Part shown: positions 5,751 through 63,776 of the stretch, one piece after another
How the letters are laid out: each line of letters opens with the position of its first letter
Position numbering within the stretch: the stretch's first letter is position 1
NCBI GenBank assembly: GCA_963708045.1
Contig: OY970181.1
Location: forward strand, 387,740-451,739
DNA: 64,000 nt
Direction: 5' to 3'
From: an uncultured bacterium
GTDB taxonomy: Bacteria; Patescibacteriota; Patescibacteriia; CAIQCM01
The notes under the pieces: generated by a model
Seen by the model: the letters and a program-made list of their open reading frames with translations, nothing else
The model's database searches: none
What the model was told of the DNA's origin: nothing
Program-made: the position numbers and the translations under genes

Positions 5751-5912
5751 AATGGTGAATATAGCCCATTTTTATGGAAAAGTCAAGGTCTCCGATGTGC
5801 CATATCTGCCCGAGAATGTTTATCGTTCATTGTTCATTGTTCATTCAAGTAATATAATGATTAACGGTTCGGGTCTTGATTTTTTGTTTAAAACGCGCTA
5901 ATATCGTTGGTT

Positions 5913-7877
5913 ATGAAATTTCCAAAATTTGAAGGAAAACAAATCTTGATTTCTTTGGCTTGCGGCGTGCTCGCGGCGGCGTTCATTCTCCTTGGTGTTT
6001 TTGGAACCTCCGAACGCCGAATTCATGATTTTCTTTATCACGCGCGCCAACCGCAACCGGACATTGTCATTGTCGCAATTGATGACGCTTCGTTACAAAC
6101 CGTTGGCCGCTGGATGTGGGATCGCGCTACGTTTGTAAAACTATTAAGCAATCTCGCGCCCGCAAAAATAATCGGGCTAGATATAAATTTTCCCGAAAGC
6201 TCGCCCACGCCAAACGCTGACGCGTCACTCGCGGCAATAATTTCCTCGCTCGGCAAAGTTGTTTTGCCGACCGACATAACTTACTTGGCTGATAATAAAA
6301 CTGTGGCGCATGCGACGACGCCAATCCCATTGCTTGCAAGCGCGGCTGTTGCTATCGCGCACACGAGCGTGCTCCCTGATCTTGATGGTATTTTACGACG
6401 TTTGCCGCTTGTTGTTTCGGCGCCCGATGGCAATACCTATCACGCCCTTGGGGAGATTGTTGCTCGTCGCGCTGGCGCTCGCGTAGAAAATTATCCGTTG
6501 GATGCTAAAGGGATGATGCTTGTTCCATATTCTGGCGCGCCTGGACGCATCCGTACCGTTTCCGCCGCTGACGTTCTTTCCGGCCGCTTGCCGCCCGAGT
6601 CTTTCCGAAATCAAATCGTGATGGTCGGCGGCACCTCGGCGATTTTTCGCGACCAGTATCGCGTCCCGACTTCGTCGGGCGCGCTAATGTCTGGCGTTGA
6701 AGTGCAAGCCAATCTTGCCGACGCTTTTCTTTCGGGAAATTTTTTCTATGAAGTCTCACCGTTTCTTGCCGCGCTCATTTGTTTATTGCTCTTGTTTGTT
6801 GTCGGCATAATTTTTGCCGCGGCGCGAACGCGAACGGCGATAATTTTTACGGTTGCAATTTTTGTCGCTTACTTTGTCGCTTACGGCGTCTCGGCTTTCT
6901 TTGGATATTTTTTACCAATAATAAATATCGCGCTCGCGCTGCTGCTTGCGTGCGTTTCGCTCATAATTTTCCGCTACGCAAAAATGACCACCGAGCGGCG
7001 CCATCTGCGGTCGGCTTTTGAAAAATATGTTGCCCCGTCGGTTATTAATTCGGTAATGGCGCATCCGGAAAAATTAGCGCTTTCGGGCGAACGCCGCAAA
7101 ATGTCGGTGCTTTTTACCGATCTCCGCGGCTTTACTACTCTTTCCGAAAAATTAAATCCGTCCGACATTATCAAAATTTTAAACGGTTACCTGAACGCAA
7201 TGACGGAAATAATTTTTGACGAACATGGCGTCGTGGACAAATATATGGGTGATTCCATAATGGCTTTTTGGGGCGCGCCGATTGACGATCCGCATCATGC
7301 CGAACGGGCGATTCGCGCCGCCATCCGAATGCGCGACCGGGTAAACGAGCTTAATCATTCTGACTATTTCGGCGCTGGCGTCACGCTTCGGGCCGGGGTT
7401 GGCGTTTCCACGGGCGAAATGATTGTTGGTAATATGGGCTCCAATCGCCGCTTTGACTATACGGTTATTGGCGACACCGTTAATCTTGGTTCACGCGTTG
7501 AAGGTCTCAACAAAACTTACGGCACGGAAATTCTCGTTACCGAAGAAACGGTTAAAGGTTTGCCGCACGACTATATTGTTCGTCAGCTTGACCGTGTCGC
7601 CGTAAAAGGGAAAAACGAACCAGTGCGGATTTATGAAGTTATTGGTTTTCGTCAGCACGCCGCGCCGGAAGTGATGGATAAACTTGATCGTTTTGCGCGG
7701 GCGCTCGCGCGCTATGAAGCGCGCGATTTTCACGGGGCGTTTATTCAGTTTGGTGATATTCTCGCCTTAAATCCGTCCGACGCGCCGTCCAATGTTTTTT
7801 GGGAACGCTCAAAATATTTTATGGAAAACCCGCCGCCCGCCGATTGGAACGGAGCGTGGGTGATGATTACTAAATAG
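5913..7877 (+). CDS. CHASE2 sensor domain-containing class III adenylate/guanylate cyclase
   Basis: N-terminal CHASE2-like extracytoplasmic domain, then 3 TM segments. The C-terminal cyclase domain has the motifs FTDLRGFT, GDSIMAFWGAP and IGDTVNLGSRVEG. ATG at 5913; the track ORF starts at a TTG at 5907. Confidence 0.85.
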   Translation: MKFPKFEGKQILISLACGVLAAAFILLGVFGTSERRIHDFLYHARQPQPDIVIVAIDDASLQTVGRWMWDRATFVKLLSNLAPAKIIGLDINFPESSPTPNADASLAAIISSLGKVVLPTDITYLADNKTVAHATTPIPLLASAAVAIAHTSVLPDLDGILRRLPLVVSAPDGNTYHALGEIVARRAGARVENYPLDAKGMMLVPYSGAPGRIRTVSAADVLSGRLPPESFRNQIVMVGGTSAIFRDQYRVPTSSGALMSGVEVQANLADAFLSGNFFYEVSPFLAALICLLLLFVVGIIFAAARTRTAIIFTVAIFVAYFVAYGVSAFFGYFLPIINIALALLLACVSLIIFRYAKMTTERRHLRSAFEKYVAPSVINSVMAHPEKLALSGERRKMSVLFTDLRGFTTLSEKLNPSDIIKILNGYLNAMTEIIFDEHGVVDKYMGDSIMAFWGAPIDDPHHAERAIRAAIRMRDRVNELNHSDYFGAGVTLRAGVGVSTGEMIVGNMGSNRRFDYTVIGDTVNLGSRVEGLNKTYGTEILVTEETVKGLPHDYIVRQLDRVAVKGKNEPVRIYEVIGFRQHAAPEVMDKLDRFARALARYEARDFHGAFIQFGDILALNPSDAPSNVFWERSKYFMENPPPADWNGAWVMITK

Positions 7878-7947: not shown

Positions 7948-8047
7948 GGCGTCATTCCGAACCCGTGATGTTGTTTTGTCTAGGGTGAGGAACCTCAAGG
8001 CAGGAATTGAGACGTTGAGATCCCTCGCTCGCGCTCGGGATGACGAC
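7948..8047 (+). repeat. MITE-like ~105 bp repeat, copy A (GTCATTCCGA...CTCGGGATGAC)
   Basis: Shares termini and internal blocks (GAGACGTTGAG, CCCTCGCTCGCGCTCGGGATGAC) with 7 other copies in the window. Confidence 0.6.
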
Positions 8048-8049: not shown

Positions 8050-9042
8050 TTAAAACCCTATTTTCTCCCTCACCATTTTCATCGTCTCTTCGGCCTTGGC
8101 GCGGGCGCGCTTGCCGCCGGCGGCAAAAACTTTTTTAACATAATTTGGATTTTTAAGAAGTTCGGCGCGCCGCGTTCTAAAGTCGGCAAAGTAAGCGATA
8201 ATGTGGTCGGCAACGGCGTCCTTGAGTTCGCTGTAGCGAATTGAACCATCGGCGTACTCGCGTTCAAACTTTTTAACTTCATCGGCTGGACCGAATTCGG
8301 TAAATAATTCAAAAAGGTTGCGAACGCCTGGCGGCATTGTGCCCGCGACTGCAGCGGTGGCGGTTACGGCTTTTCTTACCTTAGCGCGAATTTCATCGGG
8401 GGAGTCAGTAAGGAAGATCGCCGAATTGGCGACCGACTTGGACATTTTTCTTTCCGGAAAATTTAGCGACATCACGCGCGCTGTTTTGGTAAGTAGTGGT
8501 TTTGGTTCGGCAAAGGTTTCGCCAAAACGGTTGTTCCAAAAACGGGCAATGTCGCGAGTAAGTTCAACGTGCTGGACCTGATCCTCGCCAACCGGCACGC
8601 GGTTGCCGCCGTAGATAAGAATGTCGGCGGCCTGGAGGACGGGGTAATTCATTAGTCCGGCGTTGACGCTTTTTTCTTTGGCCACATAATCCTTGTACTG
8701 TGTCATCCGCTCCAAAAACGCGACCGGCGTAACGTTTTCAAACATCCAGCAGAGCTCGGTTGTTTCCGGAACGTCCTTCTGGAAAAAGAGTGTAACTTTT
8801 TTTGGATCAAGTCCGAGCGCCAGCAGATCAACAGCCATATCTGCCGCATAGGCTTTATAATTTATAAATTCTTCGTGCTGGGTCATTGCGTGATAGTCGG
8901 CAATGAAAACATACATGCGTCCGGAATATTCTTTTTGCAGATCAACAAGTTGACGAAGCATTCCCAAATAAGTGCCAAGGTGCGCAACGCCTGTTGGTTT
9001 TAGACCGGTAACAATAGTTTCTTTGTCGTTTGGCATAATCAA
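8050..9042 (-). CDS. trpS: tryptophanyl-tRNA synthetase
   Basis: Class I aaRS. HLGTYLG (HIGH-like) and KMSKS motifs. ~330 aa. Has the FIADYHAMT TrpS signature. Confidence 0.85.
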   Translation of the reverse strand: MIMPNDKETIVTGLKPTGVAHLGTYLGMLRQLVDLQKEYSGRMYVFIADYHAMTQHEEFINYKAYAADMAVDLLALGLDPKKVTLFFQKDVPETTELCWMFENVTPVAFLERMTQYKDYVAKEKSVNAGLMNYPVLQAADILIYGGNRVPVGEDQVQHVELTRDIARFWNNRFGETFAEPKPLLTKTARVMSLNFPERKMSKSVANSAIFLTDSPDEIRAKVRKAVTATAAVAGTMPPGVRNLFELFTEFGPADEVKKFEREYADGSIRYSELKDAVADHIIAYFADFRTRRAELLKNPNYVKKVFAAGGKRARAKAEETMKMVREKIGF

Positions 9043-13170: not shown

Positions 13171-13220
13171 GCTCTATTTTTTAAAATTAAACCGTTTCTT
13201 TTCATCACTCTCTAGCAGTA

Positions 13221-13757
13221 TCAATACCAACTTGATGCTCCTGGCGTGAAGATGGCCCAACCGCTATTTGTGTGGGTGGGGTCATAAAACGGATCACTTG
13301 CTGAGAGTGTCCCTTCCGGCGTGCAGTAAGCTAATAATTTATAATCTATTCCGTTTGAAGTATACACATATGTATTCCAGCCAGCCTGACTCCTGCAACC
13401 AGCTAAGGCAGAGCTTGGGTTAGTTTTGCCCATATTGGTATCGTCTGGTAGTCGTCCGATATAATTAGGGGCTAGATTGGGAATCCATCCGTTTGAACCA
13501 GAACTGTCATGGCTACCAAAAGTTGAAGTTACTCCCCACCAACTGCAACACCCGCTTACGCCCGTTGAAGGATAGGCGTCAAAGTTGGTGTAATAGAGTT
13601 CCAGCGCTTTAGAAATTTGGACGAGATCAACTTTTCGCTTCTGGTTTCGCGCGTTCATTCTCGTTGTACTTAAAGACACCACCGCAATCGTGCCGAGGAG
13701 GCCGATAATGGCAATGACAACAAGTAATTCAATAAGAGTAAAAGCACGACGAGTCAT
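13221..13757 (-). CDS. type IV pilin-like protein
   Basis: MTRRAFTLIELLVVIAIIGLLGTIAVVSL. The 5' ~75 nt are ~95% identical at nucleotide level to the pilin at 11669..12172. Confidence 0.8.
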   Translation of the reverse strand: MTRRAFTLIELLVVIAIIGLLGTIAVVSLSTTRMNARNQKRKVDLVQISKALELYYTNFDAYPSTGVSGCCSWWGVTSTFGSHDSSGSNGWIPNLAPNYIGRLPDDTNMGKTNPSSALAGCRSQAGWNTYVYTSNGIDYKLLAYCTPEGTLSASDPFYDPTHTNSGWAIFTPGASSWY

Positions 13758-13765
13758 TAAACGAA

Positions 13766-13803
13766 TGTCTAATTTCTAATGTCTAATGTCGAGTGACTAA
13801 TCC
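13766..13803. repeat. ctaat word-repeat array, upstream of pilin start and abutting a MITE-like copy
   Basis: gtctaatttctaatgtctaatgtcgagtgactaatcc. Confidence 0.5.
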
Positions 13804-13922
13804 GCCGTCATTCCGAGCCTGTAAGGTTGGTTTGTCCAAGGCTCGGCCGAGCTCAGCTCGGCGAGGAACCACGGAGCCTGTTTTGAGACTTTGAGTTCCT
13901 TCGCTCCGCTCGGGATGACGCC
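13803..13922 (+). repeat. MITE-like repeat copy B
   Basis: ccgccgtcattccgagcctgtaaggttggtttgtccaaggc...gagactttgagttcc...ctcgggatgacgcc. Confidence 0.65.
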
Positions 13923-14033: not shown

Positions 14034-15944
14034 CTACACTTCAATAATAACCGGAAGAATCATCGGGCGGCGTTTGGTTTGTGACCAAAGGTATTGGCCA
14101 ATGTCATCGCGAATTTTATTTTTGGTATATTCCTCAAAAGCCGGGGAACGCGGGTCAGCGTCGTGAAGGATTTTGCGGACACGGGCGCGCGATTTTTCCA
14201 CAAGTTCGTGCGCGTCTTTAAGATAAACGAAGCCGCGGGAAATAATATCGGGACTGCCGATAAGTTTGCCGGTGTTTCGTTCCATCGTGCAGATGACAAC
14301 AAACATTCCGTCCTCGGCCAGCTGCAGGCGGTCACGCAAAACGACGTGCGAAACGTCGCCAACGCCCAGGCCGTCCACCATAATATATTCAATCGGGTAT
14401 TTGTCGTCGGTCATTTTGCCGCCGTTTCCATCAAATTCAACAATCTGTCCGTTGTCCGGAATAAAAATGCGGTCGCGTGTTACGCCAACTTCTTCGGCCA
14501 AGTCGGCATGCGCGTGGCGCAAGAACAGGTTGGCGTAGCCGGGGAGGAAATAGCGCGGCTTTGTGAGCATAATCATTTCTTTAAGCTCTTCTTGTTTGGC
14601 ATGACCGCCAGCGTGCACGTCCATATTGGCATAATGCACGACTTTAGCGCCTTGGCGGATTAGGGTGTCTTTAAGCGATTGCACCGTGCGTTCATTTCCT
14701 GGAATGACCGAAGAAGAGAAAATAACCATATCGCCCTCTTCTAAACGGACGGATTTGTGTTCGCGGTTTGCGATGCGCATTAGAGCTGCGTTTTCTTCGC
14801 CTTGCGCGCCAGTGCAGATGATAATAAGTTTTTCCGGAGCAATGTGCTTAATCTCGTCTTCTTCAATAATCGTGCCCGGCTTGTATTTCATATAGCCAAG
14901 CTGGTGGGCAATTTCCACGTTGGAATGCATTGATCGTCCGAGAAGCAAAACTTTGCGGCCGGTTTTTTCGGCGATCGTTAAGAGTTGCTGAACGCGGGTG
15001 AGAAGCGAAGCAAACGTGCCGACGATAATGCGGCCTTTGTGTTTGGAAACAATACCTAAAAGTTCTTCGCTTACGACCGTTTCCGAAATTTGTCGTCCGG
15101 GTGAAGCGGCCGAAGTTGAATCGGACACAAGCAAGAGGACGCCGCGTTCGCCAAAAGCGGCGACGCGCGCGGGGTCGGCCGGCAGTTCTGGCGGAATCGG
15201 GTCGCGATCAAATTTAAAGTCACCGGTAAAAATTACCGTTCCGTATGGCGTATGCAAAGCAACGCCGAAAGAGTCGGCAATATTGTGGTTAATATGAAAT
15301 GGTTCAAAAACAAAATTTTTGCCCATCTGAATGCGAACATCGGCCGTTTTAACCAATTGAATTTTGAGTTGTTGAAGGTTGCCGTATTCTTCTTGGCGTT
15401 TTTTAATAAGACCAGCGGTAAGCGGGGCGGTATAAATTACCGGCCAGCCAAGCTTGGGCATAACGTGAGGAATGCCGCCGATGTGGTCATAGTGTCCATG
15501 GGTAATAATCACGCCGCGGATATTTTTTTCTTTTCCGCGCAAGCAGGAAGTGTCAGGGATGATGTAATCAATCCCAGGCATTCCTTCTTCGGGAAACATC
15601 AAACCCATGTCCACGATAATAATATCATCGCCCATTTCCACGACGGCGCAATTTCTTCCGACTTCTTCTAGTCCGCCAAGTGCGTAAACTTTTAATTTGG
15701 TCGGATCGTATTTAATTGTCGGCATTGGTGGCTTCACGACTTCGCGCGGTTCGGCGCGAAAACGCGGACCACGTCCGCCTCCGCGCGCGCCGCCGGAATG
15801 TTTTTGATTAGGCGGATGCCCGCTTGGTTTTTTGGAACCTTGATTAAAACGATTTACACCCTGATTGCTTTTTGCCGGTGTAAAGGGGGCGTGATTTTTT
15901 GGATTGTCGTGCCTTTGAACCGGGTGCTGTTGGTTTTGCACCAT
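14034..15944 (-). CDS. rnj: ribonuclease J (metallo-beta-lactamase/beta-CASP), with ~75-aa Arg/Gly-rich N-terminal extension
   Basis: HGHYDHIGG motif plus beta-CASP region. N-terminal low-complexity stretch GGARGGGRGPRFRAEPRE. Confidence 0.85.
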   Translation of the reverse strand: MVQNQQHPVQRHDNPKNHAPFTPAKSNQGVNRFNQGSKKPSGHPPNQKHSGGARGGGRGPRFRAEPREVVKPPMPTIKYDPTKLKVYALGGLEEVGRNCAVVEMGDDIIIVDMGLMFPEEGMPGIDYIIPDTSCLRGKEKNIRGVIITHGHYDHIGGIPHVMPKLGWPVIYTAPLTAGLIKKRQEEYGNLQQLKIQLVKTADVRIQMGKNFVFEPFHINHNIADSFGVALHTPYGTVIFTGDFKFDRDPIPPELPADPARVAAFGERGVLLLVSDSTSAASPGRQISETVVSEELLGIVSKHKGRIIVGTFASLLTRVQQLLTIAEKTGRKVLLLGRSMHSNVEIAHQLGYMKYKPGTIIEEDEIKHIAPEKLIIICTGAQGEENAALMRIANREHKSVRLEEGDMVIFSSSVIPGNERTVQSLKDTLIRQGAKVVHYANMDVHAGGHAKQEELKEMIMLTKPRYFLPGYANLFLRHAHADLAEEVGVTRDRIFIPDNGQIVEFDGNGGKMTDDKYPIEYIMVDGLGVGDVSHVVLRDRLQLAEDGMFVVICTMERNTGKLIGSPDIISRGFVYLKDAHELVEKSRARVRKILHDADPRSPAFEEYTKNKIRDDIGQYLWSQTKRRPMILPVIIEV

Positions 15945-25099: not shown

Positions 25100-25140
25100 T
25101 AAAAAAATCCTCCCCGCTTTTGGCGGGGAGGATTTTTAAA
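25100..25140. terminator. bidirectional intrinsic terminator
   Basis: atcctccccgc ttttg gcggggaggat flanked by A-run and T-run. Confidence 0.65.
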
Positions 25141-25141
25141 A

Positions 25142-25558
25142 TTACTGAAGGGATTTTTCCTTAAGCTTCTTGGTATAGTTTTTGATGTTGTAAAGTTTGG
25201 CGCGGCGAACCTTGGCTTGCTTGACCGGCTCAACGTTTACGATTGTCGGAAGATCCATTGGGTAGATTTTTTCAACGCCGATGCCGTATGATTCTTTTCT
25301 AACGGTAAAAGTGCGCGAAACGCCGGCGCCGCGGATGCCGATAATGATGCCTTCAAAAATCTGAACGCGCTCTTTTTCTTCGCCCTTTGGCGTGATTTCG
25401 CGAATCTTTTGGTGAACCTTAACCGTCATGCCAGGTTTAATATCCCAGCGGCGTTTTCCCGCGGGTTTCGCGGTTTCGGCCGGTGCGGTAACGGTGGTTT
25501 CGGTTGAATTTTGTTTGGTTTCTTCCATATAAATAACCCCGTTTCCGGGGGAAGTCAT
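25142..25558 (-). CDS. rplS: 50S ribosomal protein L19 (with N-terminal extension)
   Basis: RVQIFEGIIIGIRGAGVSRTFTVRKESYGIGVEKIYPMDLPTI matches the L19 core. ~50-aa N-terminal extension; start codon is uncertain. Confidence 0.8.
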   Translation of the reverse strand: MTSPGNGVIYMEETKQNSTETTVTAPAETAKPAGKRRWDIKPGMTVKVHQKIREITPKGEEKERVQIFEGIIIGIRGAGVSRTFTVRKESYGIGVEKIYPMDLPTIVNVEPVKQAKVRRAKLYNIKNYTKKLKEKSLQ

Positions 25559-30073: not shown

Positions 30074-31144
30074 ATGAATAAAATATTGCTTTATGTTGCT
30101 GGCGGTTGCGCGTGCTTAGGGATAGGCGCGTATTTTTATAGTGTCTTGCCAGCGGCAAAGACCGTAGTGATTTTGGATAATAAACAAAACGATGTAAACC
30201 AATCGGTTGTTAAAAAAGAAGAAGCGCAATTGCCAAAAGAAGAGCCGATTATTTCAATAATTTTTGGCGGCGACATAATGCTGGGGCGGAGCGTGGCCGC
30301 GCAAATTAAAACCAATGGCACGGATTATCCTTTTGCAAAAATAAATAACACCATCGCGGCTGCGGATTTTGCGATCGCGAACCTAGAGGGACCGATTACG
30401 AAAATAAATAACGAACCAGCCAACCGAATGCGTTTTCATTTTGACCCATCGCTAGCGCAAGAGCTCGCGATGGTCGGCTTTGACGCTTTTTCGCTCGCCA
30501 ATAATCATGGTTTGGATCAAGGAAGCAAAGGACTTACTGATGACAAGAAAAATCTTGAGGCCGTTGGTCTAAAATATTTCGGCGATCCATCCGCAACCAA
30601 CGGAAGTGTTTATGAATTTACCGCGGCCGGAAAAAAGATCGCCGTCATTGGTTTTCAAATGGTTTACGGAAAACTCGATCCCAATGGATATGCCAAAGCG
30701 ATTGCCGACGCCAAAAAGAACGCCGATATTGTTATCGTAATGCCGCACTGGGGCATTGAATACGAACATACCGCGACAAAGTCGCAAAAAGATTTAGCGC
30801 GGCAATTTATTGACGCCGGCGCCGACATTATCGTCGGCTCGCATCCGCACGTTTTGGAAGGGATAGAAATATATAAAGACAAGCCGATTTTTTACTCGCT
30901 CGGCAATTTGGTTTTTGACCAATATTTTTCCGAAGAAACTCAAGAGGGGATGATGTTGCGTTTAAATTTATCGGCCAGCAAACAAACGATTGAACTTTTG
31001 CCATATAAAATTCCCCAAAGCCAGCCGGTTTTGGCCGAGGGCGAGGTAAAAGCCAAAATGCTTAACGACATCGCCTCGTGGTCGGCGGCGGAATTAAAAG
31101 AGCAAATAATTGCAGGGAGTATCGCCGTCATTCCAAGTCTGTAA
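30074..31144 (+). CDS. CapA/PGA_cap family metallophosphoesterase (poly-gamma-glutamate synthesis-like)
   Basis: GGDIMLGRSV, ANLEGPIT, and GFDAFSLANNH...DQG motifs. Confidence 0.7.
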   Translation: MNKILLYVAGGCACLGIGAYFYSVLPAAKTVVILDNKQNDVNQSVVKKEEAQLPKEEPIISIIFGGDIMLGRSVAAQIKTNGTDYPFAKINNTIAAADFAIANLEGPITKINNEPANRMRFHFDPSLAQELAMVGFDAFSLANNHGLDQGSKGLTDDKKNLEAVGLKYFGDPSATNGSVYEFTAAGKKIAVIGFQMVYGKLDPNGYAKAIADAKKNADIVIVMPHWGIEYEHTATKSQKDLARQFIDAGADIIVGSHPHVLEGIEIYKDKPIFYSLGNLVFDQYFSEETQEGMMLRLNLSASKQTIELLPYKIPQSQPVLAEGEVKAKMLNDIASWSAAELKEQIIAGSIAVIPSL

Positions 31145-31167
31145 AGTCGGTTAAGTCCAGACCTCTT

Positions 31168-31273
31168 GCCGTCATTCCGAGCTCGTAAGGTCGTTTTGTC
31201 CAGAGCGAGGAAGCATGGAGTATAATTAGAGACTTTGAGTTCCCTCATCGCTTCGGCGCTTCGGGATGACGCC
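31168..31273 (+). repeat. MITE-like repeat copy C (first of tandem array)
   Basis: gccgtcattccgagctcgtaaggtcgttttgtccagagcgagg...gagactttgagttccctc...cttcgggatgacgcc. Confidence 0.65.
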
Positions 31274-31300
31274 ACACACCCCTTCGTCGCTCCTACCCCC

Positions 31301-31434
31301 GCCGTCATTCCGAGTCCGTGCGGTCGGTGTGTCCAGGACGAGGAAACACGAAGCTTGATTTAAGACGTTGATAGTTACAATCTCCGTGCGAACTAAGACG
31401 CTTAGCGATCTCTCGCTTTGTATGGGATGACGCC
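31301..31434 (+). repeat. MITE-like repeat copy D (longer variant)
   Basis: gccgtcattccgagtccgtgcggtcggtgtgtccaggacgaggaaacacgaagc...gggatgacgcc. Confidence 0.6.
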
Positions 31435-31460
31435 ATATACCTCGCTATCGCTTCTACCCC

Positions 31461-31560
31461 GCCGTCATTCCGAGCCTGTAAGGTCGTTTTGTCCAAGGCG
31501 AGGAAACACGAAGCTTGCTAGAGACTTTGAGTTCCCTCGTTACCACTCGGGATGACGCCG
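31461..31560 (+). repeat. MITE-like repeat copy E
   Basis: gccgtcattccgagcctgtaaggtcgttttgtccaaggcgaggaaacacgaagc...ctcgggatgacgccg. The spacers between copies are also similar (ctcgct..ctacccc). Confidence 0.65.
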
Positions 31561-31621
31561 AGTGTGAGCTCTTGGCAAAAATAAATCTTTGGGTTATTAT
31601 GGCGTCTGCAAGCAAATATTA

Positions 31622-31699
31622 GGGCGGCTAGCTCAGTTGGTTAGAGCGTCACATTGACATTGTGAAGGTCAGAGGTTCGAACCCCTCTGCCGCCCACCA
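31622..31699 (+). tRNA. tRNA-Val (anticodon GAC), CCA encoded
   Basis: Acceptor GGGCGGC/GCCGCCC. Anticodon loop TTGACAT. 3' ACCA. The T-arm parse is slightly irregular. Confidence 0.8.
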
Positions 31700-31701
31700 A
31701 A

Positions 31702-31735
31702 AACACCCAGTCCAAAACGACTAGGTGTTTTTGTA
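31702..31735 (+). terminator. intrinsic terminator after tRNA-Val
   Basis: acacccagtc caaaac gactaggtgt plus TTTTTG. Confidence 0.55.
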
Positions 31736-31831
31736 TTTTATGTAAAGGTTTCGCCTCGACCAAACCGCCTTGACTTTTTGGCGATTTTTTGATAGAATAA
31801 TTTAATATTTTATAAAATAATTAGTAATTTT

Positions 31832-38090: not shown

Positions 38091-39275
38091 ATGGCGAAAA
38101 AAATTACTAGCGAACAAATCAAACAAATTTTCGGCCGCGGGGTGGCGGAAATAGTCGGCAGTGAACGCTTGTTTCAAGCTTTAGAAAAAGGTGAGACTTT
38201 GCGTTTTAAAATGGGAATGGATCCGACCTCGCCCGACATTCATATTGGACACGCTGTTGGTTTGAGGCTGTTGCGAAAACTTCAAGATCTTGGTCACGAG
38301 GTCGTGATTATCGTTGGCGACTACACCGCGCGGATTGGCGACCCTTCGGGACGTTCAAAAACCCGTCCGGCGCTGGATCCAAAGGCGATTGACGCGAACG
38401 CCAAAACTTACCTTAGCCAAGTCGGAAAAATTTTGGACGTAAAAAAGATTGAGCTGGTTAAAAATTCCAAATGGCTTTCAAAATTAACTTTCGCCGATCT
38501 TATAAAATACGCCGCGCATTTTACGGTTGCGCGAATTCTTGAACGCGACGATTTTTCAAAGCGCTTCAAAGCGGGAACGGAAATTTTTCTTCACGAAATG
38601 CTTTATCCGCTAATGCAGGCTTACGACTCGGTCGCGATAAAGGCGTCCGTAGAAGTCGGGGGAACGGATCAAACCTTTAATATGCTCGCTGGTCGCGAAC
38701 TCCAGAAAAAGCTCGGCCTTCCCGAACAGGCGGTTATCACCTGCCCTCTCCTTGTCGGGTTAGACGGCACAAACAAAATGTCCAAGTCACTTGGTAACTA
38801 CATTGGTGTTACCGAATCGGCCGAAAGTATGTATGGCAAAGTGATGAGTATACCCGATACGCTAATTGCTAATTATTTTGAATTGGCAACCGAAGTTACG
38901 GCCGAAGAAATTGCCAAGATAAAAAATGAAATGCTTACCGGTGCAAACCCGCGCGACATTAAAATGCGTTTAGCGCGGGAGATTGTGTCATTGTTTCACC
39001 CCAAAGGCGCGGCCGAGAAGGCGGAAGAAGCTTTTGTTAAAACTTTTCAAAAAAAAGAAACACCGGATGAGATAGAAGAAAAAAAGGTAAAAGCTGATAC
39101 GCTTCTTGATGTACTTGTTGAAGTTGGCTTTGCTTCGTCCAAAACCGACGCCCGCCGGACGGTTGAACAAGGTGGTGTTAAGGTAGATGGCGAAGTTACT
39201 AAAGATTTTTTAATGGAAATTAAAAAAGGCAGCTTGATTCAGAAAGGGAAAAGGTACTTTGTAAGAATCGTTTAA
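38091..39275 (+). CDS. tyrS: tyrosyl-tRNA synthetase
   Basis: HIGH (DIHIGHAVGL) and KMSKS motifs, and C-terminal S4 domain. 394 aa. Confidence 0.9.
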   Translation: MAKKITSEQIKQIFGRGVAEIVGSERLFQALEKGETLRFKMGMDPTSPDIHIGHAVGLRLLRKLQDLGHEVVIIVGDYTARIGDPSGRSKTRPALDPKAIDANAKTYLSQVGKILDVKKIELVKNSKWLSKLTFADLIKYAAHFTVARILERDDFSKRFKAGTEIFLHEMLYPLMQAYDSVAIKASVEVGGTDQTFNMLAGRELQKKLGLPEQAVITCPLLVGLDGTNKMSKSLGNYIGVTESAESMYGKVMSIPDTLIANYFELATEVTAEEIAKIKNEMLTGANPRDIKMRLAREIVSLFHPKGAAEKAEEAFVKTFQKKETPDEIEEKKVKADTLLDVLVEVGFASSKTDARRTVEQGGVKVDGEVTKDFLMEIKKGSLIQKGKRYFVRIV

Positions 39276-39373: not shown

Positions 39374-39478
39374 CCGTCATCCCGAAACGCCGAAGCGGTG
39401 AGGGAACTCAAAGTCTCTAGCAAGCTTCGTGATTCCTTGCCTTTGACAAACGACCTTACGGGCTCGGAATGACGGCGG
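39374..39478 (-). repeat. MITE-like repeat copy F (inverted orientation)
   Basis: ccgtcatcccgaaacgccgaagcggtgagggaactcaaagtctc...ctcggaatgacggcgg is the reverse complement of the family consensus. Confidence 0.65.
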
Positions 39479-39512
39479 ATTAGAAATTAGATATTAGGTA
39501 TTAGGTATTCAA
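39479..39512. repeat. attag word-repeat array immediately upstream of argS start
   Basis: attagaaattagatattaggtattaggtattc. Confidence 0.5.
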
Positions 39513-39514: not shown

Positions 39515-41232
39515 ATGTCTCCACTCTCAAAAATAAAACAAGAAATCATCAACGCGATTGCCCAAGTTTATCCAAACTCAACTTTGGTTGTTTCGGATAT
39601 TGTTCCCGCGCCAAGTCCGGCGCTCGGTGACCTCGCCGTACCAATGTTTAAGCTCGTAAAAGTTTTAAGTAAGTCGCCGAGCGCGATTGCCGAAGAGCTT
39701 CGCGAAAAAATGCCGTCTTTAAAAACGATTCAGAGCGCCGAAGTTGCCGGGCCGTATTTAAATTTGCGCTTGAATCAATCAGTAGTCATAAACAACGTAA
39801 TGGCGGCCATTACCAAAGAAAAAGCAAAGTACGGCAACGGAAAAGCAACTAAGGAAAAAATAATGGTTGAATTTGTCGCGCCGAACATTAATAAGCCGCT
39901 TCACTTGGGACACCTTAGAAACGCCGCGCTTGGCGAATCACTCTGCCGGATTTTAGAAGCCGCCGGCAACACGGTTGTTCGCTCTAATTTACTAAGTGAC
40001 AGGGGTGTTGGTGTTGCCAAAGCGATGGTGGCCTACGAACATTTTGGTGGCAACGAAACGCCAAAAAGCTCGGGAATGAAAGGTGATCATTTTGTTGGAA
40101 AATATTACGTGATGTTTGAACAAGAAAAAGTTCGGCACCCAGAAATTGAAAACGAAGTGGCTGAGTCGCTTAGAAAATGGGAAGCGGGGGACAAGGCCAC
40201 GCGCGCTCTTTGGCGGGTAATGACCGACTGGTGCGTAAAGGGACAAAACGAAACGCTAAAAATGCTTGGCGTTAAATACGACAAAGTTTATCGCGAAAGC
40301 GCGTTTTATAATGAAGGCCAGAAAATGGTTTTGGCGGCCTTGGAAAAAGGGATTTTTTCTAAAGACGAAAAAGGAAACGTTGTCGCCAAACTTCCGAACG
40401 AACCTGATAAAGTTGTTCTTCGTGCTGACGGGACGGCCGTCTATATTACAACCGACTTGCCGCTTACGGTTAAAAAAATGACTGAATTCAAATTGTCGCG
40501 GTGCTTGTGGGTTGTTGGAATGGAACAAGACCAGCACTTGCGCCAGCTTACTGGTATTATGCGGCTTTTGGGTTACAGGTGGGTAGACGCGCTTGAACAT
40601 GTTTCTATGGGCACGTCGCTCTTCCCGAAGGCCGGATGAAGTCGCGCGAAGGCACGGTCGTGGACATTGATGAATTAGTAGAACACCTTTCCAAGCTCGC
40701 GGCGGCGGAAATTAAAGAGCGCCACGACTTTTTGGATCAAGCCGAAGTGGACAAGCGCGCCGAAGAAATCGCTCTTGGCGCGGTTAAGTTTTATTTGTTG
40801 TCAGTTACGGCGACGAGCGGAATGACTTTTAATCCAAAAGAGTCGTTGTCCTTTAACGGCAAGACTGGTCCGTATTTGCAGTATACAAATGCACGCATTG
40901 CTTCTATTTTGCGCAAAGCCGCTCATGATAAAATAAAAATTGGCCGAATTGACGCCTCTAAACTTATTGAGCCGACGGAGTGGCAGCTTGTTTTGCGCTT
41001 GTCTGAGTTTGCCGATGCTATAGAAGCGGCCGCAAGCGGTCGCGACCCTTCGGTAATTGCCCGATATTGTTACGATCTTTCAAAATCATTCGCCGAATTT
41101 TACGAAAACGTTCCGGTTATAAAAGCCGAAGCAATATTTCGCTCCTCGCGGCTCGCGCTTTCGGCCGCCGTCGGGTTGGTGCTTGGTCGTAGTTTGGAAC
41201 TGCTCGCCATCCCCGCGCCAAAGGAAATGTAG
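39515..41232 (+). CDS. argS: arginyl-tRNA synthetase, interrupted by a 1-nt frameshift near 40636 (two ORFs 39515..40639 and 40636..41232)
   Basis: N-terminal Arg_tRNA_synt_N, HLGHLRN (HIGH-like), and catalytic core in ORF1. KMSKS-equivalent MKSREG plus DALR anticodon-binding domain (YLQYTNARIASILRKA) in ORF2. The frame shifts inside the ccggatgaag run. Confidence 0.8.
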
Positions 41233-60500: not shown

Positions 60501-61829
60501 ATGTCCAACCCTATTGTTCAAGCTATTAAGCAAATTTGCGACGAAAAGAAACTTTCTGCCGAAGCAGTTTTGGAAACCGTTGAGGCGGCACTTGCGGCTG
60601 CCTACCGAAAAGATTTTGGCGAAAAAAATCAGAACGTCAAAATTGTTTTTGATCCGGAAAGCGGCAATATGCGTGCCTTTGACGTAAAGACGATTGTTGC
60701 CGAAGAGCTTTACGAAAAATATGTTAAAGAAGAAGAAGATCGGAAAAAAGCTTCCGAAGAAGCAGTGGCACTTGGCATAAAGCCGGAAGACCGCAAAGAA
60801 GAAAAGCGCGCGGAACCGATTGCGCCAGCGCTTAATCCCGACGGCACGCCCATTCCTGAAGAGCCGGTTTATAATCCAAAACTTAATCTCGCGCTTTCAG
60901 AAGCGCGCGAAATAAAAAAAGACGCCGAAGTCGGCGAAGAGTTGCGTTTGGAATTGGAAATCCCTTCGGCTTTCGGCCGAATGGCGGCGATGACCGCCAA
61001 GCAAGTTATTACCCAGCGCCTGCGCGAAGCTGAACGGATCAATGTTTATAACGAAATGAAAAGCCAGGAAGGCGAACTTGTCGCTGGTGTGGTTCAACGC
61101 CGCGAGGGCCGTATGGTGCTCGTTGATCTTGGTCGGACAACCGGCGTTATGCCGCCTGAAGAACAAATTTCAACCGAGAACTACAACCCCGGCGATCGTG
61201 TTAAGGTTTTTGTCACCGCTGTTAATGTTACCCAGCGCGGTCCGCAGGTAATTGTTTCTCGCGCCTCCGAAGAAATTGTGCGCAAACTTTTTTCGTTGGA
61301 AATTCCCGAAGTTGCTTCGGGCGTTGTTTCCGTTCATGCCGTTGCTCGCGAAGCTGGTTCGCGCGCCAAGGTTGCCGTGAGTTCCAAAGAAGCGAATATT
61401 GATCCGATCGGTTCTTGTATTGGCCAGCGTGGTACGCGCATTCAAACGATTATTTCGGAATTGGGCGGCGAAAAAATTGACGTTATTCAATGGGAAGAAG
61501 ACGCGCAAAAATTTATCGCCATGGCGCTCGCGCCAGCCAAAGTAAGCAAAGTTGAATTGGACGCGGCCTCGGGAACGGCGAATGTCACGGTTGCGACCGA
61601 CCAGTTGTCGCTCGCCATCGGTCGCGGCGGACAAAACGTCCGCTTGGCCTCGCGCCTTTCCGGTTGGAAGATAAACATTATTGAAGAAAACAAAGCTCCG
61701 ACCGAAGACGAAACACCAGCGGAAGAATCCAAAGAAAAACCTGAAACCGAGGTCGAAAGAAAAGACCAAAGAAGAAGTAAACGACAAAGACGGCGAATAA
61801 AACCGTTCGGATTAGATATTAGAAATTAG
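60501..61829 (+). CDS. nusA: transcription termination/antitermination factor NusA (with basic C-terminal tail)
   Basis: NusA N-terminal domain, S1 domain (RVKVFVTAVNVTQRGPQVIVSRA), and two KH domains. C-terminal KDQRRSKRQRRRIK tail. Confidence 0.9.
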   Translation: MSNPIVQAIKQICDEKKLSAEAVLETVEAALAAAYRKDFGEKNQNVKIVFDPESGNMRAFDVKTIVAEELYEKYVKEEEDRKKASEEAVALGIKPEDRKEEKRAEPIAPALNPDGTPIPEEPVYNPKLNLALSEAREIKKDAEVGEELRLELEIPSAFGRMAAMTAKQVITQRLREAERINVYNEMKSQEGELVAGVVQRREGRMVLVDLGRTTGVMPPEEQISTENYNPGDRVKVFVTAVNVTQRGPQVIVSRASEEIVRKLFSLEIPEVASGVVSVHAVAREAGSRAKVAVSSKEANIDPIGSCIGQRGTRIQTIISELGGEKIDVIQWEEDAQKFIAMALAPAKVSKVELDAASGTANVTVATDQLSLAIGRGGQNVRLASRLSGWKINIIEENKAPTEDETPAEESKEKPETEVERKDQRRSKRQRRRIKPFGLDIRN

Positions 61830-62614: not shown

Positions 62615-63535
62615 ATGTGGGTGGAGGAAACAAGGAAACATATGCTTCTAGACGAAGCGGTGCTTAAAACAATTTCCTATTTTGACCTTTTTGATTATCC
62701 GCTTACTCGCGCCGAGATTTGGAAGTATTTAATCAGCGAAAAAATAAATTTATTCGAAACGGACACCGTTCTTACGACGCTCGTAAAAAGCGGGCGGCTT
62801 GAAGAAAAAAACGGTTTAATATTTTTTCCGGGGCGGGGAAGTATCGCTTTTAAGCGCGAATCACGTTATCGTCACGCGGCGCGCAAATGGCGCCGCGCTC
62901 ACCGTTGGGCGAATTTTTTTTCGGCCATCCCTGGCGTCGCGCTTGTTGGTATTGGCAACACGCTTTCGTATGGTAACGCCAAAGACAGTTCGGATATTGA
63001 TTTTTTTATCATTGTCCGTCGCGGCACGATTTGGCGAACAAGATTTTTTGCCGCCGGCATGGCCGCGCTTTTTCGTTTGCGCCCGACGCCAAAAACAGGG
63101 CGCGACAAGATTTGTCTCTCGTTTTTTGTTGACGAAGATAATTTAAATTTGCAAAAATTCGCTATCACCGCTTCTCCGGATATATATTTGGCTTTTTGGA
63201 TCGGTCAAATGATGCCGCTTTATGGCGACGTCCGTATTTACGAAAGATTTTTGTCGGAAAATGGTTGGGTTAAAGAAATTTTACCGAATATTTTTGGTTG
63301 TGGCGTGGTGAGCAAAAAAAATAATCTAAGCAAATATATTTTTTCTCCGTTAAATTTATTGCCAGGGAATTTTTTAAAGAAATTTCAAAGTCGTCATTTT
63401 CCCGCTGCTCTGCTTTTGGCGGAAAAAAAACGCGATGGCGCGGTTTGTATTTCCGACGAAGTATTAAAGTTTCACCTTAACGATCGCCGCGGCGAGATAT
63501 ACAATATGTGGAACAGGCGAATATCTAATACCTAA
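62615..63535 (+). CDS. nucleotidyltransferase-fold (Pol beta-like) domain protein
   Basis: Minimal NTase motif GIGNTLSYGNAKDSSDIDFFIIV. The C-terminal codons ISNT* lie within a ctaat word-repeat array. Confidence 0.5.
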   Translation: MWVEETRKHMLLDEAVLKTISYFDLFDYPLTRAEIWKYLISEKINLFETDTVLTTLVKSGRLEEKNGLIFFPGRGSIAFKRESRYRHAARKWRRAHRWANFFSAIPGVALVGIGNTLSYGNAKDSSDIDFFIIVRRGTIWRTRFFAAGMAALFRLRPTPKTGRDKICLSFFVDEDNLNLQKFAITASPDIYLAFWIGQMMPLYGDVRIYERFLSENGWVKEILPNIFGCGVVSKKNNLSKYIFSPLNLLPGNFLKKFQSRHFPAALLLAEKKRDGAVCISDEVLKFHLNDRRGEIYNMWNRRISNT

Positions 63536-63552
63536 TACCTAATATCTAATCC
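63516..63552. repeat. ctaat word-repeat array abutting MITE-like copy G
   Basis: atatctaatacctaatacctaatatctaatcc. Confidence 0.5.
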
Positions 63553-63555
63553 GTC

Positions 63556-63660
63556 CGCCGCCATTCCGAGCCTGGTTAGTTGCTTTGTCTTGACGAGGAA
63601 TCACGGAGCAATTAAGAGACGTTGAGTTCCCTCGTCGCTACCGCTTCTCGGGATGACGCC
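63556..63660 (+). repeat. MITE-like repeat copy G
   Basis: cgccgccattccgagcctggttagttgctttgtcttgacgaggaatcacggagc...gagacgttgagttccctcgtcgctaccgcttctcgggatgacgcc. Confidence 0.6.
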
Positions 63661-63669
63661 ATACACCCC

Positions 63670-63776
63670 GCCGTCGTTCCGAGTCTGTAAGGTCGGTTTG
63701 TCCAAGGCGAGGAATCACGGAGGTGAATTTGAGACGTTGAGTTCCCTCGTCGCTACCACTTCTCGGGATGACGGCG
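63670..63776 (+). repeat. MITE-like repeat copy H
   Basis: gccgtcgttccgagtctgtaaggtcggtttgtccaaggcgaggaatcacggagg...gagacgttgagttccctcgtcgctaccacttctcgggatgacggcg. Confidence 0.65.

Follow-up and report, generated by a model that had tools for sequence, protein, structure and literature searches.

The CGTC-tagged REPs, which include dRS3 from Neisseria and RPE-4 and RPE-6 from Rickettsia, were described by Di Nocera, De Gregorio and Rocco (2013, BMC Genomics 14:522; PMC3733652). They are defined by a CGTC tag (variants TGTC and CCTC), an 8-9 bp stem whose first pairs are A-T and T-A, a loop of 4-5 nt and an unpaired tail of 3 nt, mostly CCA. They occur mainly as head-to-head dimers with spacers of 20-100 bp, and also as heterodimers; five phyla were reported and no linked transposase was found. 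REPINs are REP doublets which form hairpins, and their tandem clusters repeat the doublet plus its flanks (Bertels and Rainey, 2011, PLoS Genet 7:e1002132; PMC3116915).

The 64-kb stretch of DNA analysed here (the window) contains a repeat of ~105 bp, which is probably a head-to-head doublet of palindromic, CGTC-tagged REP units with the tags outward, similar to REPINs and BIMEs. This kind of element is already known from many bacteria, and the repeat is a variant specific to this lineage.

Every copy consists of two hairpin units, A and B, in inverted arrangement and separated by a conserved spacer of ~25 nt, in which the block AGAC(G/T)TTGA is located. Unit A reads CGTC / ATTCC-GA-GCC / loop / GGC-GA-GGAA on the + strand of the element, and unit B reads CGTC / ATCCC-GA-R / loop / Y-GA-GGGA on the opposite strand. 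The loop of unit A is 18-20 nt long (40 nt in copy 13803) and that of unit B 4-12 nt. The stem is composed of 4-5 Watson-Crick pairs, two G.A pairs and 1-3 more Watson-Crick pairs, which gives a mismatch-interrupted stem of near 8-9 bp.

An earlier note had listed eight copies of ~105 bp in the window, and a search with an nhmmer family profile recovered all of them, with E values from 1.6e-19 to 1.3e-27. These eight copies, grouped in five loci, and one previously unlisted partial 5' unit are the full nhmmer yield of the 64 kb. Compared in pairs, the eight copies are 62-89% identical (76% on average), values above the ~60% which the earlier note had taken as the lower limit for related copies. 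The conserved internal blocks it had described also hold: AGAC[GT]TTGA and GGGATGACG are invariant across the window copies and AGGAA is kept in 8/8. The sequence GTCATTCCGAG (with at most one mismatch) occurs 15 times in the window, compared to 0.81 expected, a number reached by none of 100 shuffles. Seven copies are on the + strand and one, copy 39374, is on the - strand, along DNA whose GC skew is monotonic. The features are the following:

7948..8047, + strand: full doublet copy (nhmmer 7948-8048, E 1.3e-24), unit A variant CGTC-ATTCC-GA-ACC...GGT-GA-GGAA; lies between convergent genes, a CHASE2-cyclase at 5907..7877 (+) and a class-I W/Y tRNA synthetase at 8050..9042 (-)
13764..13802, + strand: CTAATNT heptamer array ending in CTAATCCG, abuts unit A of copy 13803
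13803..13922, + strand: full doublet copy (nhmmer 13804-13923, E 3.4e-24) with an additional 20-nt hairpin (about 13840-13859) within the loop of unit A; RNase J at 14034..15944 (-) and a pilin-like gene at 13221..13757 (-) on either side
31120..31167 (limits by eye), + strand: partial copy, 5' arm and loop of unit A only (nhmmer 31124-31158, E 0.015)
31168..31273, + strand: tandem cluster, copy 1 (nhmmer 31168-31274, E 3.1e-26)
31274..31300, + strand: inter-copy spacer 1, ACACACCCCTTCGTCGCTCCTACCCCC, repeated along with the doublet
31301..31434, + strand: tandem cluster, copy 2 (nhmmer 31300-31435, E 1.6e-19)
31435..31460, + strand: inter-copy spacer 2, ATATACCTCGCTATCGCTTCTACCCC
31461..31560, + strand: tandem cluster, copy 3, the reference copy (nhmmer 31461-31559, E 1.3e-27)
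31463-31506: unit A of copy 31461, with tag CGTC at 31463-31466, ATTCC-GA-GCC, loop at 31477-31496, GGC-GA-GGAA
31507-31531: A/B spacer of copy 31461
31532-31557: unit B of copy 31461, whose top strand is the minus strand
31572-31600: tRNA-Val promoter-like site 3' of copy 31461, followed by tRNA-Val at 31622-31699
39374..39478, - strand: full doublet copy (nhmmer 39372-39476, E 4.1e-25); TyrRS at 38091..39275 (+) and ArgRS at 39515..40639 (+) on either side
39479..39510, + strand: ATTAGNN heptamer array, located between copy 39374, whose unit A it abuts, and the ArgRS start codon; context
63519..63553, + strand: CTAATAC/T heptamer array ending in CTAATCCG, just 5' of copy 63556; context
63556..63660, + strand: tandem pair, copy 1, tag variant CGCC (nhmmer 63557-63661, E 1.1e-21); ORF 62615..63535 (+) upstream
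63661..63669, + strand: short inter-copy spacer, ATACACCCC, a truncated version of the triplet spacers
63670..63776, + strand: tandem pair, copy 2 (nhmmer 63670-63775, E 6e-27)

The doublets are dispersed in intergenic DNA beside gene 3' ends. At least one gene 3' end adjoins every locus of the window (the earlier note had placed the copies usually at such ends); its statement that all copies are intergenic stands for the copies generally, but the partial copy at 31120 provides the PGA_cap gene 30074..31144 with its last six codons, AVIPSL* (its C-terminus was compared with those of L133 and L128). ORF 8050..9042 (-) has its stop codon 2 nt from the end of copy 7948. Copy 31301 is the most degenerate: its unit B is without an inner arm and it carries a 34-nt insertion. 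In the tandem clusters, the repeated unit comprises the doublet and its flanking spacer, and the two spacers of the triplet (31274-31300 and 31435-31460) are indeed related, with 78% identity. The abutment of three copies on CTAAT heptamer arrays ending in CTAATCCG was also found, at 13797, 39476 (minus strand) and 63546. The array at copy 13803 is neighbouring context, and possibly reflects an insertion-site preference.

The unpaired terminal tag relates the repeat to the CGTC REPs. The outer tags are CGTC at both ends of all eight copies, with single variants in two of them (copy 63556 has CGCC, copy 63670 has CGTCG), and TGTC variants are present in the metagenome loci L112, L118 and L123. 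The stem start AT of the CGTC REPs is seen in the metagenome copies in 21/27 cases for unit A and 20/27 for unit B, and the window copies frequently lack the first stem pair (after GGAA they have A, C or G). The window doublets are likewise head-to-head and heterodimeric with the tags outside, and the two families share an intergenic location with occasional intrusion into gene ends, a presence in many phyla and the lack of a linked transposase. Moreover, relatives of the window organism carry textbook single units, which have an 8-bp stem starting with AT, a 4-nt loop and a CCA tail. The unit at L133:15984, TGTC-ATTCCCGC-GAAG-GCGGGAAT-CCA, is one example; L122:674 and L116:9248 also have the published loop length, and a short basic doublet is found in a relative at L118:8462-8540.

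The window-type units differ from the published CGTC REPs in four respects. The loop of unit A, 18-20 nt (40 nt in one copy) and conserved across genomes, is longer than 4-5 nt; the stems contain tandem G.A mismatches; the spacer contains the invariant AGAC(G/T)TTGA; and the tail is CTC instead of CCA. This CTC tail is present in the metagenome copies and in unit B of the window copies, and the tail of unit A is variable in the window (ACA, TCA, CCA, GCA).

The repeat resembles REPINs in that it consists of two inverted REPs and a spacer, in a unit of ~70-110 bp which, as single-stranded DNA or as RNA, is predicted to fold into a long hairpin, and in that the copies are scattered in extragenic DNA, form tandem clusters which repeat their flanks and show no target duplication. 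On the other hand, the tag is CGTC, whereas that of REPINs is GTAG-type; each REPIN population goes with one single-copy RAYT gene that has REPINs on either side, and no RAYT link is seen in the loci searched here; REPINs are nearly identical within a genome, unlike the window copies (62-89%); and REP sequences differ from lineage to lineage, whereas this tag and stem are common to many phyla. The BIMEs of Escherichia coli, studied by Gilson, Bachellier and Hofnung, are similar in that two types of REP unit alternate in orientation, with conserved linkers of two alternating kinds, and form multi-unit clusters at gene 3' ends. The REPs of BIMEs are nevertheless GTAG-type and unrelated in sequence.

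In addition to the opposite orientation of their top strands, the two units of a doublet differ at defined positions. At stem position 3, unit A has T-A and unit B has C-G; unit A closes with G-C, unit B often with A-T. These differences between A and B are self-compensating, so that each unit folds alone, and the end-to-end stem contains a fixed T.G wobble and an A.C mismatch. The 8/8 window copies and the 19/19 aligned metagenome copies are all heterodimers of a T-type and a C-type unit with a spacer of ~25 nt, and the same holds for the cross-phylum set.

Covariation was scored on an alignment of 27 copies (8 from the window and 19 from metagenomes) and compared to 500 shuffles. For the model of two local hairpins, the covariation is 0.151, compared to 0.076 in the shuffled alignments, none of which (0/500) reaches this value; 28 cells have both sides changed, compared to 9.0 expected. 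The closing pair of unit B is A-U in 16 of the 27 copies, G-C in 11, and never broken. On the contrary, the end-to-end stem shows no covariation above the shuffles in the same 27 copies (0.059 compared to 0.055; 75/500 shuffles reach it), and its pair 65-106 is broken in 16/27 copies. An independent cross-phylum set gives the same picture. Its members were found by their outer arms only and the inner arms were then scored: both inner arms are recognisable in 75 of the 115 matches listed. Among these 75, 64 combine GGAAT and ATCCC, which pair locally and would give A.C in the long stem, 10 have a combination of inner arms that pairs in the long stem, and one has neither. The motif GCGNAGC is found on the tag-5' strand in 53 of the 115 matches listed, its complement in the other half in 33 of the 115, and the reverse arrangement in 4.

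The computed energies favour the long hairpin. Folded as DNA, one strand of the whole element has an energy of -17.4 kcal/mol (z -2.3) and the other of -18.3 kcal/mol (z -2.5), and the RNA fold of the + strand reaches -38.8 kcal/mol (z -3.2); in DNA as in RNA, the fold is a long hairpin. The isolated units, with nearest-neighbour DNA parameters, have energies of only -4.1 and -2.9 kcal/mol, not better than those of shuffles. Sheared G.A pairs and GNA loops have a known stability. Since the computed energies of the units are weak, the case for local hairpins rests on the covariation and on this stability. The RNA fold which the earlier note had suggested predicting is thus a stable long hairpin, but the covariation favours local hairpins instead, and the single end-to-end hairpin is rejected as the conserved structure even though it is the thermodynamically favoured fold. 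The data support two local hairpins as the conserved structure. Similarly, the imperfect terminal inverted repeats of the earlier note are inverted ends, but these are the outward tags and stems of two separate hairpin units.

The doublets are gained and lost between related genomes, like miniature mobile DNA. Loci L133 and L134 are syntenic with the window between its positions 14 and 34 kb, with 65-81% nucleotide identity; a segment of 461 nt in the window, consisting only of copies and spacers, corresponds to 59 nt in these loci. Conversely, a copy present in L114, 3' of its orthologue of 60501..61829, has no counterpart in the window. Two paralogous spacers of the window itself, 12173-12355 and 13758-14033, are empty and filled, respectively. 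The filled and empty sites have diverged, so that the junctions are not placeable to the nucleotide. Relatives with 82% identity have no copies in about 21 kb. The RNase J relatives L131 and L132 carry no copies, and their synteny breaks just 3' of the gene, so that they give no junction for copy 13803. The window copies are on average 76% identical to each other and 72-76% identical to copies in other genomes; the divergence within the window is thus about the same as between genomes, and a recent burst has not occurred.

Bacterial MITEs, such as the Correia elements of Neisseria, RUP of Streptococcus and the Coxiella MITEs (PMC5896051), are also elements of ~100-150 bp with inverted termini, dispersed and intergenic, which can extend or remodel ORF ends. 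They have target-site duplications and the termini of DDE insertion sequences, neither of which was found here. According to this explanation, which the earlier note had considered, the repeat would have arisen by internal deletion from a DDE-type insertion sequence, whose transposase binds the double-stranded termini and produces a target-site duplication. The size of ~100 bp, the inverted termini of 12-14 bp, the dispersed intergenic location and the presence or absence of copies at orthologous sites agree with it. However, no direct repeat flanks the 8 window copies or 20 metagenome copies, nor was one found in the comparison of the filled and empty paralogous spacers, and the termini are the outer arms of two locally covarying hairpins whose long-range pairs do not covary. 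A parent insertion sequence with these ends was not found in about 1.1 Mb of related loci, and among the 111 cross-phylum loci listed there is no longer element with the same ends and an internal ORF; in the tag maps of these loci, no outward pairs of tags consistently enclose an ORF-sized segment. The 141 ORFs that flank the elements belong to 174 Pfam families, none of which is recurrent, and transposases are not enriched among them. Finally, the same ends are found in about nine phyla, which would be unusual for one family of insertion sequences. A classical MITE is therefore very unlikely, and the term fits the repeat in a loose sense only.

The cognate transposase which the earlier note had proposed looking for was found neither in the window nor in the related loci searched. 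A jackhmmer search with the E. coli RayT as seed covered the six-frame ORFs of about 1.2 Mb, the window and the other loci together, and gave no RAYT in the window or in 25 related loci. Among the 111 cross-phylum loci listed, the sole RAYT match, L062:2829-3416, is flanked by an inverted repeat of the GTAG type, not CGTC. BLAST searches of plasmids with a cross-phylum copy and of phages with the triplet gave no match.

The stem-loops of E. coli REPs have been shown to block 3' exonucleases or to attenuate read-through. The window repeat might, in the same way, be an RNA element which is kept for the effect of its stem-loops in 3' untranslated regions, its spread as DNA being incidental. The gene 3' ends beside every locus, the stability of the RNA folded from the + strand and the invariant U.G in the outer stem of this strand fit such a role, and the copies are old (76% identity) yet have invariant stems and tags, which suggests constraint. 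But the copies are found in both orientations relative to the genes: copies 13803 and 39374 are antisense to the flanking genes, and the 31168 cluster and copy 63556 are sense. The other strand gives C.A mismatches at the U.G positions, and the purine-rich G.A version of unit B is on the strand opposite to that of unit A, so that no single transcript contains both optimal hairpins. Moreover, syntenic relatives lack the element at the same genes.

Rfam 15, in which the earlier note had suggested searching for the repeat, does not contain it. There is no match in the window at the gathering threshold, the region 31050-31720 gives only tRNA at E values up to 10, and the elements of 18 cross-phylum loci have no match at the gathering threshold; the Rfam matches in the searched regions are otherwise tRNA, tmRNA and RNase P only. 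Hammerhead, twister and other small-ribozyme cores were considered and rejected, as inspection by eye revealed no CUGANGA/GAAA arrangement and there was no Rfam match. The idea of a terminator or insulator module was not borne out: the region 30900-31900 contains neither a T-run nor a terminator-like site, the sequence 3' of the copies is not T-rich, and copy 7948 adjoins a canonical bidirectional hairpin terminator (7903-7945) that is separate from it and lies just before it. A repeat whose primary function is in RNA is thus unlikely, and the proposal of a REP/BOX-like structured RNA element is correct as regards REP, the repeat being a doublet of CGTC-tagged hairpins; the units have opposite top strands and the copies are in both orientations, so "structured RNA" is not the best description of an element whose symmetry is at the DNA level. 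As a secondary effect of a DNA element, hairpins in 3' untranslated regions probably also affect the stability of mRNA 3' ends.

The family is not restricted to one locus. Besides the five loci of the window, 21 full-length copies of the window type are carried by 19 metagenome contigs. Twenty matched the search pattern, the copies at L126:842-972 and L128:7779-7884 are two further copies that matched the profile only, and an identical copy is found on L116 and L120. The strict pattern, which includes the window-type spacer block, has no match in the GTDB species representatives; the window-type variant is thus absent from them and was recovered only in metagenome contigs. The broader pattern CCGTCATTCCGAG-N70-100-GGGATGACG matches at least 111 loci or species representatives in about nine phyla, for a chance expectation which we estimate at about 2. 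According to the titles of the records, the phyla beyond the published five are Acidobacteriota, Verrucomicrobiota, Chloroflexota, Gemmatimonadota, Planctomycetota, Bdellovibrionota, Bacillota and candidate-phyla-radiation lineages. The 12-nt tag and stem (CGTCATTCCGAG / CGTCATCCCGAG) are near-identical in at least 111 species representatives, including some with very small genomes. Sphingomonas and Methylorubrum are examples of hosts of CGTC REPs that can be cultivated. A full-text search of the literature with the terminal sequence and with the peptides of the spurious ORFs gave no relevant paper, and RepRanger (PMC12306157) and a survey of HUH endonucleases (PMC6006769) contain nothing specific on CGTC repeats.

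Some copies are close to genes of stable RNAs: the triplet is 62 nt from tRNA-Val, the single REP of L133 adjoins tRNA-Ile and the copy of L005 adjoins tmRNA. Most copies are not near tRNA genes.

The binding of gyrase, IHF and Pol I has been shown for the BIMEs of E. coli. The CGTC doublets could, by the same logic, be arrays of DNA sites bound by a host protein that is itself conserved, such as gyrase, a nucleoid protein or a recombinase, and the partner would explain their conservation. The near-identity of the tag and stem across about nine phyla (at least 111 species representatives) is in line with this proposal, as are the alternation of two unit types, like the Y and Z REPs in BIMEs, and the lack of a transposase. 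However, the presence of the doublets varies among close relatives (as mentioned before, those with 82% identity have none in about 21 kb), which argues against an essential chromosomal role; the compensatory changes within the units point to a hairpin and not to a duplex site; and no partner is indicated by this analysis. We consider such a role highly improbable.

The reading as a REPIN-like doublet of CGTC REPs leads to a mechanism by analogy with the REP/REPIN-RAYT systems and IS200/IS605. The hairpins would form in single-stranded DNA, for example in the lagging-strand template, and would be recognised by an enzyme acting in trans, with the conserved unpaired tag as its cleavage site. The doublet would be moved or copied in this way without duplication of the target, and the tandem clusters may result from slippage or unequal recombination.

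It is conceivable, although rather doubtful, that the CGTC doublets form an "orphan" REP system with a partner other than a RAYT. The tag and stem are near-identical across at least 111 species representatives and old copies have invariant stems, which could reflect a conserved trans-acting enzyme or host function acting on two alternating types of hairpin. If this were true, the AGAC(G/T)TTGA block of the spacer and the conserved loop of unit A would be extra recognition modules, and the source genome, of 1.19 Mb, would offer a minimal background for finding the partner.

The identification of the repeat as a doublet of CGTC REPs, and not as a new ribozyme, riboswitch or MITE, means that annotators can mask it and be wary of the ORF ends which it creates, ...AVIPSL* for instance. 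The tag and stem are present in many more phyla than the five reported, including genomes of the candidate phyla radiation. The two units differ by self-compensating changes which keep the small hairpins and spoil the long one, a rule that the independent cross-phylum set also follows. These results sharpen the question of what moves or maintains the CGTC superfamily without a dedicated transposase. In the lineage of the window organism, whose genomes are small, the filled and empty orthologous sites show that these doublets turn over.

The repeat family is real and was rightly described in the earlier note; it is accounted for by a known class, the CGTC-tagged REPs, of which it is a lineage-specific variant. 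The eight copies listed there, which start at 7948, 13803, 31168, 31301 and 31461 (a tandem triplet), 39374 (minus strand), 63556 and 63670 (a pair), were confirmed by reading the sequence, and a family profile retrieved the same eight at full length from the 64-kb window (E 1.6e-19 to 1.3e-27), together with only the fragment 31124-31158, a partial copy. With at most one mismatch, GTCATTCCGAG occurs 15 times in the window (0.81 expected), and 13 of these matches mark ends of copies already listed; the match at 22400, within uvrA, is probably due to chance, and that at 31127 marks the partial copy, absent from the earlier list. The eight copies are indeed related (pairwise identity 62-89%, mean 76%) and have internal blocks in common; the ~27-nt spacers of the triplet are related too (78% identity, direct repeat D17), and three copies adjoin CTAAT heptamer arrays whose end is CTAATCCG. 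Of the five loci, the 31168 cluster and the 63556 pair are sense to their genes, 13803 and 39374 are antisense, and 7948 lies in a gap where genes converge. The orientation bias along the window (plus strand for seven of eight copies, four of five loci) is only a hint.

The anatomy of the element is described on copy 31461-31560, used as a reference.

Features of the reference copy
31463-31466, plus strand: tag CGTC
up to 31506, plus strand: unit A, ATTCC-GA-GCC, 20-nt loop, GGC-GA-GGAA
between units A and B: spacer of 25 nt, which holds AGACTTTGA
31532-31557, opposite strand: unit B, CGTC, ATCCC-GA-G, 6-nt loop, C-GA-GGGAA

This layout shows that the element consists of two small inverted hairpin units with their tags outward. 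The 14-nt inverted ends, earlier described as "terminal inverted repeats", are only part of the structure. The eight window copies and 19 copies from metagenome contigs were aligned (alignment A3), and pairs were counted under two models.

Covariation in the 27 aligned copies
Two local hairpins: 0.151, shuffled mean 0.076, score reached by 0 of 500 shuffles
End-to-end stem: 0.059, shuffled mean 0.055, score reached by 75 of 500 shuffles

Under the local model, 28 cells are changed on both sides (9.0 expected), the closing pair of unit B is A-U in 16 copies, G-C in 11 and broken in none, and the three inner pairs of unit A (G-C/C-G/C-G) change to A-U, U-A or C-G. The end-to-end model pairs 89.5% of cells, solely because the arms are conserved, and its pair 65-106 is broken in 16 of the 27 copies. 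The outer stem of that model has an invariant U.G (27/27) and the inner stem an A.C in 26/27. Both follow from the arms of the two units, ATTCC/GGAA in A and ATCCC/GGGA in B, since each unit pairs with itself. The two units differ by a compensated change.

The fold, whose prediction had been proposed, was computed with nearest-neighbour energies, which favour the long hairpin on either strand (-17.4 and -18.3 kcal/mol for the two DNA strands; -38.8 kcal/mol, z -3.2, for RNA). The isolated units fold weakly (-4.1 and -2.9 kcal/mol, not better than shuffled sequences). The energy model gives no credit to sheared G.A pairs, so the case for local hairpins rests on covariation.

The family extends across phyla. 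In a scan that took a single genome for each species, the outer arms (CCGTCATTCCGAG-N70-100-GGGATGACG) matched at least 111 loci; about two matches are expected by chance in 596 Gb, both strands, by our estimate, which assumes equal base frequencies. According to record titles, the matches listed come from Acidobacteriota, Verrucomicrobiota, Chloroflexota, Gemmatimonadota, Planctomycetota, Alpha-, Beta- and Gammaproteobacteria, Bdellovibrionota, Bacillota and two candidate-phyla-radiation lineages, Roizmanbacteria and Komeilibacteria. In their common plan, CGTC-ATTCC-GA-GC-GNA-GC-GA-GGAAT-CYC is followed by a variable hairpin and by the inverse form, which has ATCCC/GGGAT; runs of the GCGNA pentamer are often present on one side. 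Since the inner arms are outside the search pattern, they provide an independent test of the pairing model. Among the 75 listed matches in which both are recognisable, 64 have GGAAT and ATCCC, which pair locally but would form A.C in the long stem. In just 10 do the two inner arms pair with each other in the long stem, and one shows neither pattern. Of 115 listed matches, 53 carry GCGNAGC on the tag-5' strand and 33 its complement in the other half, compared with 4 that show the opposite placement. It follows that the top strand of each unit is defined, and that the two units have theirs on opposite strands. Cross-phylum arrangements also include 19-nt-period arrays (loci L004, L058, L104), tandem repeats of tag plus half-stem alone, five doublets spaced 440-570 nt (L013) and a tandem triplet of 185-nt period (L006); the regularly spaced doublets may sit within a larger repeated unit.

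A stricter pattern including the window's spacer block had no match among species representatives and matched 19 metagenome contigs, which keep the window's unit A loop GGTCGNTNTGTCC, GAGGAATCTC and GAGAC(G/T)TTGAGATCCCTC. Textbook single units are found in the fetched contigs L122 (TGTC-ATCCCGGC-GAAC-GCCGGGAT-CCA), L116 (CGTC-ATTCCCTT-GAAG-AAGGGAAT-CCA) and L133 (TGTC-ATTCCCGC-GAAG-GCGGGAAT-CCA), and the basic GCGTAGC loop is seen in a short doublet, L118:8462-8540. The presence of these forms in the same contigs or in closer relatives indicates that the window type derives from the basic doublet by enlargement of the unit A loop.

Di Nocera et al. (PMC3733652) described CGTC repeats as having an unpaired CGTC/TGTC tag, a stem that starts with AT, spacers of 20-100 bp, a predominance of head-to-head dimers (tags outside), a preference for heterodimers, occasional intrusion into coding ends and no dedicated transposase. 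The window element resembles them in tag, head-to-head heterodimers, spacers, coding-end intrusion and the absence of a detected transposase, and in part in the AT stem start, whose first pair is often lost in the window copies. It differs in two listed features, a loop of 4-5 nt and a CCA tail; it is therefore filed as a variant within the superfamily, outside families CGTC-1 to CGTC-4. It shares with REPINs (PMC3116915) the inverted pairing of two REPs, the capacity for hairpin formation and tandem clusters in which the flanks are repeated, and with BIMEs the alternation of unit types and of linkers. Unlike REPINs, it has no GTAG tag, and no RAYT linked to it in the window or fetched loci. 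No Rfam family matched the element in the window region or in 18 cross-phylum loci, and searches of plasmid and phage sequences gave no match. The suggestion of a terminator is not supported, as 30900-31900 holds neither a T-run nor a terminator-like site; copy 7948 adjoins a separate canonical terminator (inverted repeat I7). With A-runs and T-runs on their flanks (AAAAAATTCTCCCCGCC...GGCGGGGAGAATTTTTT), the two near-identical perfect hairpins at 7903-7945 and 25102-25144 have the look of intrinsic terminators that act in both directions between convergent genes.

Copies have been gained or lost at orthologous sites, and they cluster in tandem. The window lies on a contig of 1,188,223 bp. In L133 and L134, loci syntenic with 14-34 kb of the window (65-81% nucleotide identity), 59 nt separate the PGA_cap gene from the tRNA-Val promoter, compared to 461 nt in the window, all of them taken up by three copies, the two spacers and the fragment. 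The PGA_cap protein ends in ...TGNINF* in L133, ...GNIGF* in the related locus L128 and ...AGSIAVIPSL* in the window, where the last six codons (AVIPSL*) of ORF 30074-31144, at its 3' end (31120-31144), come from the partial copy. Conversely, a copy present in the related locus L114, between the heptamer array and the orthologue of 60501..61829, is missing from the window; AAAGACGGCGAA at 61786-61797, at the position of the doublet's right end (GATGACG) in L114, could be the tag left behind by a copy since lost, or a coincidence. Of two paralogous spacers 5' of pilin-like genes, only one contains copy 13803: the empty spacer reads CTAATCCGA/TAAACGAC, the filled one CTAATCCG, element, TAACGAC. 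No target-site duplication is visible in this pair or at the flanks of window or metagenome copies. Three of the five CTAATCCG-ended arrays adjoin unit A, a weak hint of insertion-site preference. A profile search found no window-type copies in the loci of L131 and L132 (~82% identity) or L133-L136. Divergence within the window equals that between genomes, which indicates an old family and no recent burst.

Several paralogous pilin-like genes (N_methyl motif; 11669-13757, 3368-3468, 24557-24654) have conserved 5' parts. In L131 and L134, unrelated genes take the place of the block between RNase J and the BNR-repeat gene; this block is therefore a variable cassette region. About 20 short tandem arrays of 7-nt words (families CTAATNT, CCCTAAA, CATGGTN and TTTTAAC) occupy much of the intergenic DNA.

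Heptamer arrays in the window
1208, 5817, 7875, 12178, 12296, 13764, 16367, 16436, 26159, 27109
27152, 34780, 34837, 39479, 57304, 57339, 60458, 61811, 63520

Many stop 4-12 nt 5' of a start codon (12172-, 13757-, 39515+, 60501+, 61845+). In array 61808-61838, 29 nt are identical in L114 despite a flanking gene of just 77-89% protein identity, which suggests that the arrays may have a constrained promoter or leader role. The arginyl-tRNA synthetase is apparently split (ORFs 39515-40639 and 40636-41232, 4-nt overlap; the Pfam scan covered the first); a frameshift, a gene that is truly split or a sequencing error could explain this. The segment 46000-54000 (G+C 35-40%, 44-50% elsewhere) may be acquired. 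The bacterial type-A RNase P RNA (5304-5749, minus strand) has insertions, since it is 446 nt long for a 367-position model.

A jackhmmer search from E. coli RayT in six-frame ORFs of the window and all fetched loci (L001-L136) gave one protein only, L062:2829-3416, which is flanked by a GTAG-type inverted repeat. This sole RAYT-like ORF in ~1.2 Mb of fetched DNA is followed by GGTAGGGACG...CCATCCCTACC (flanks 3440-3530), and the same genome has CGTC doublets 1.7 kb away. The 141 ORFs beside the listed cross-phylum copies represent 174 Pfam families, none of which has more than three members or is a transposase. Both negatives, in the window and fetched loci, agree with the reported absence of a dedicated transposase for CGTC repeats (PMC3733652). 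By analogy with TnpA(REP) and IS200/IS605, the hairpins would act in single-stranded DNA, and a trans-acting enzyme may recognise or cleave them at the tag. The remaining interest lies in the factor that mobilises or maintains the whole CGTC superfamily.
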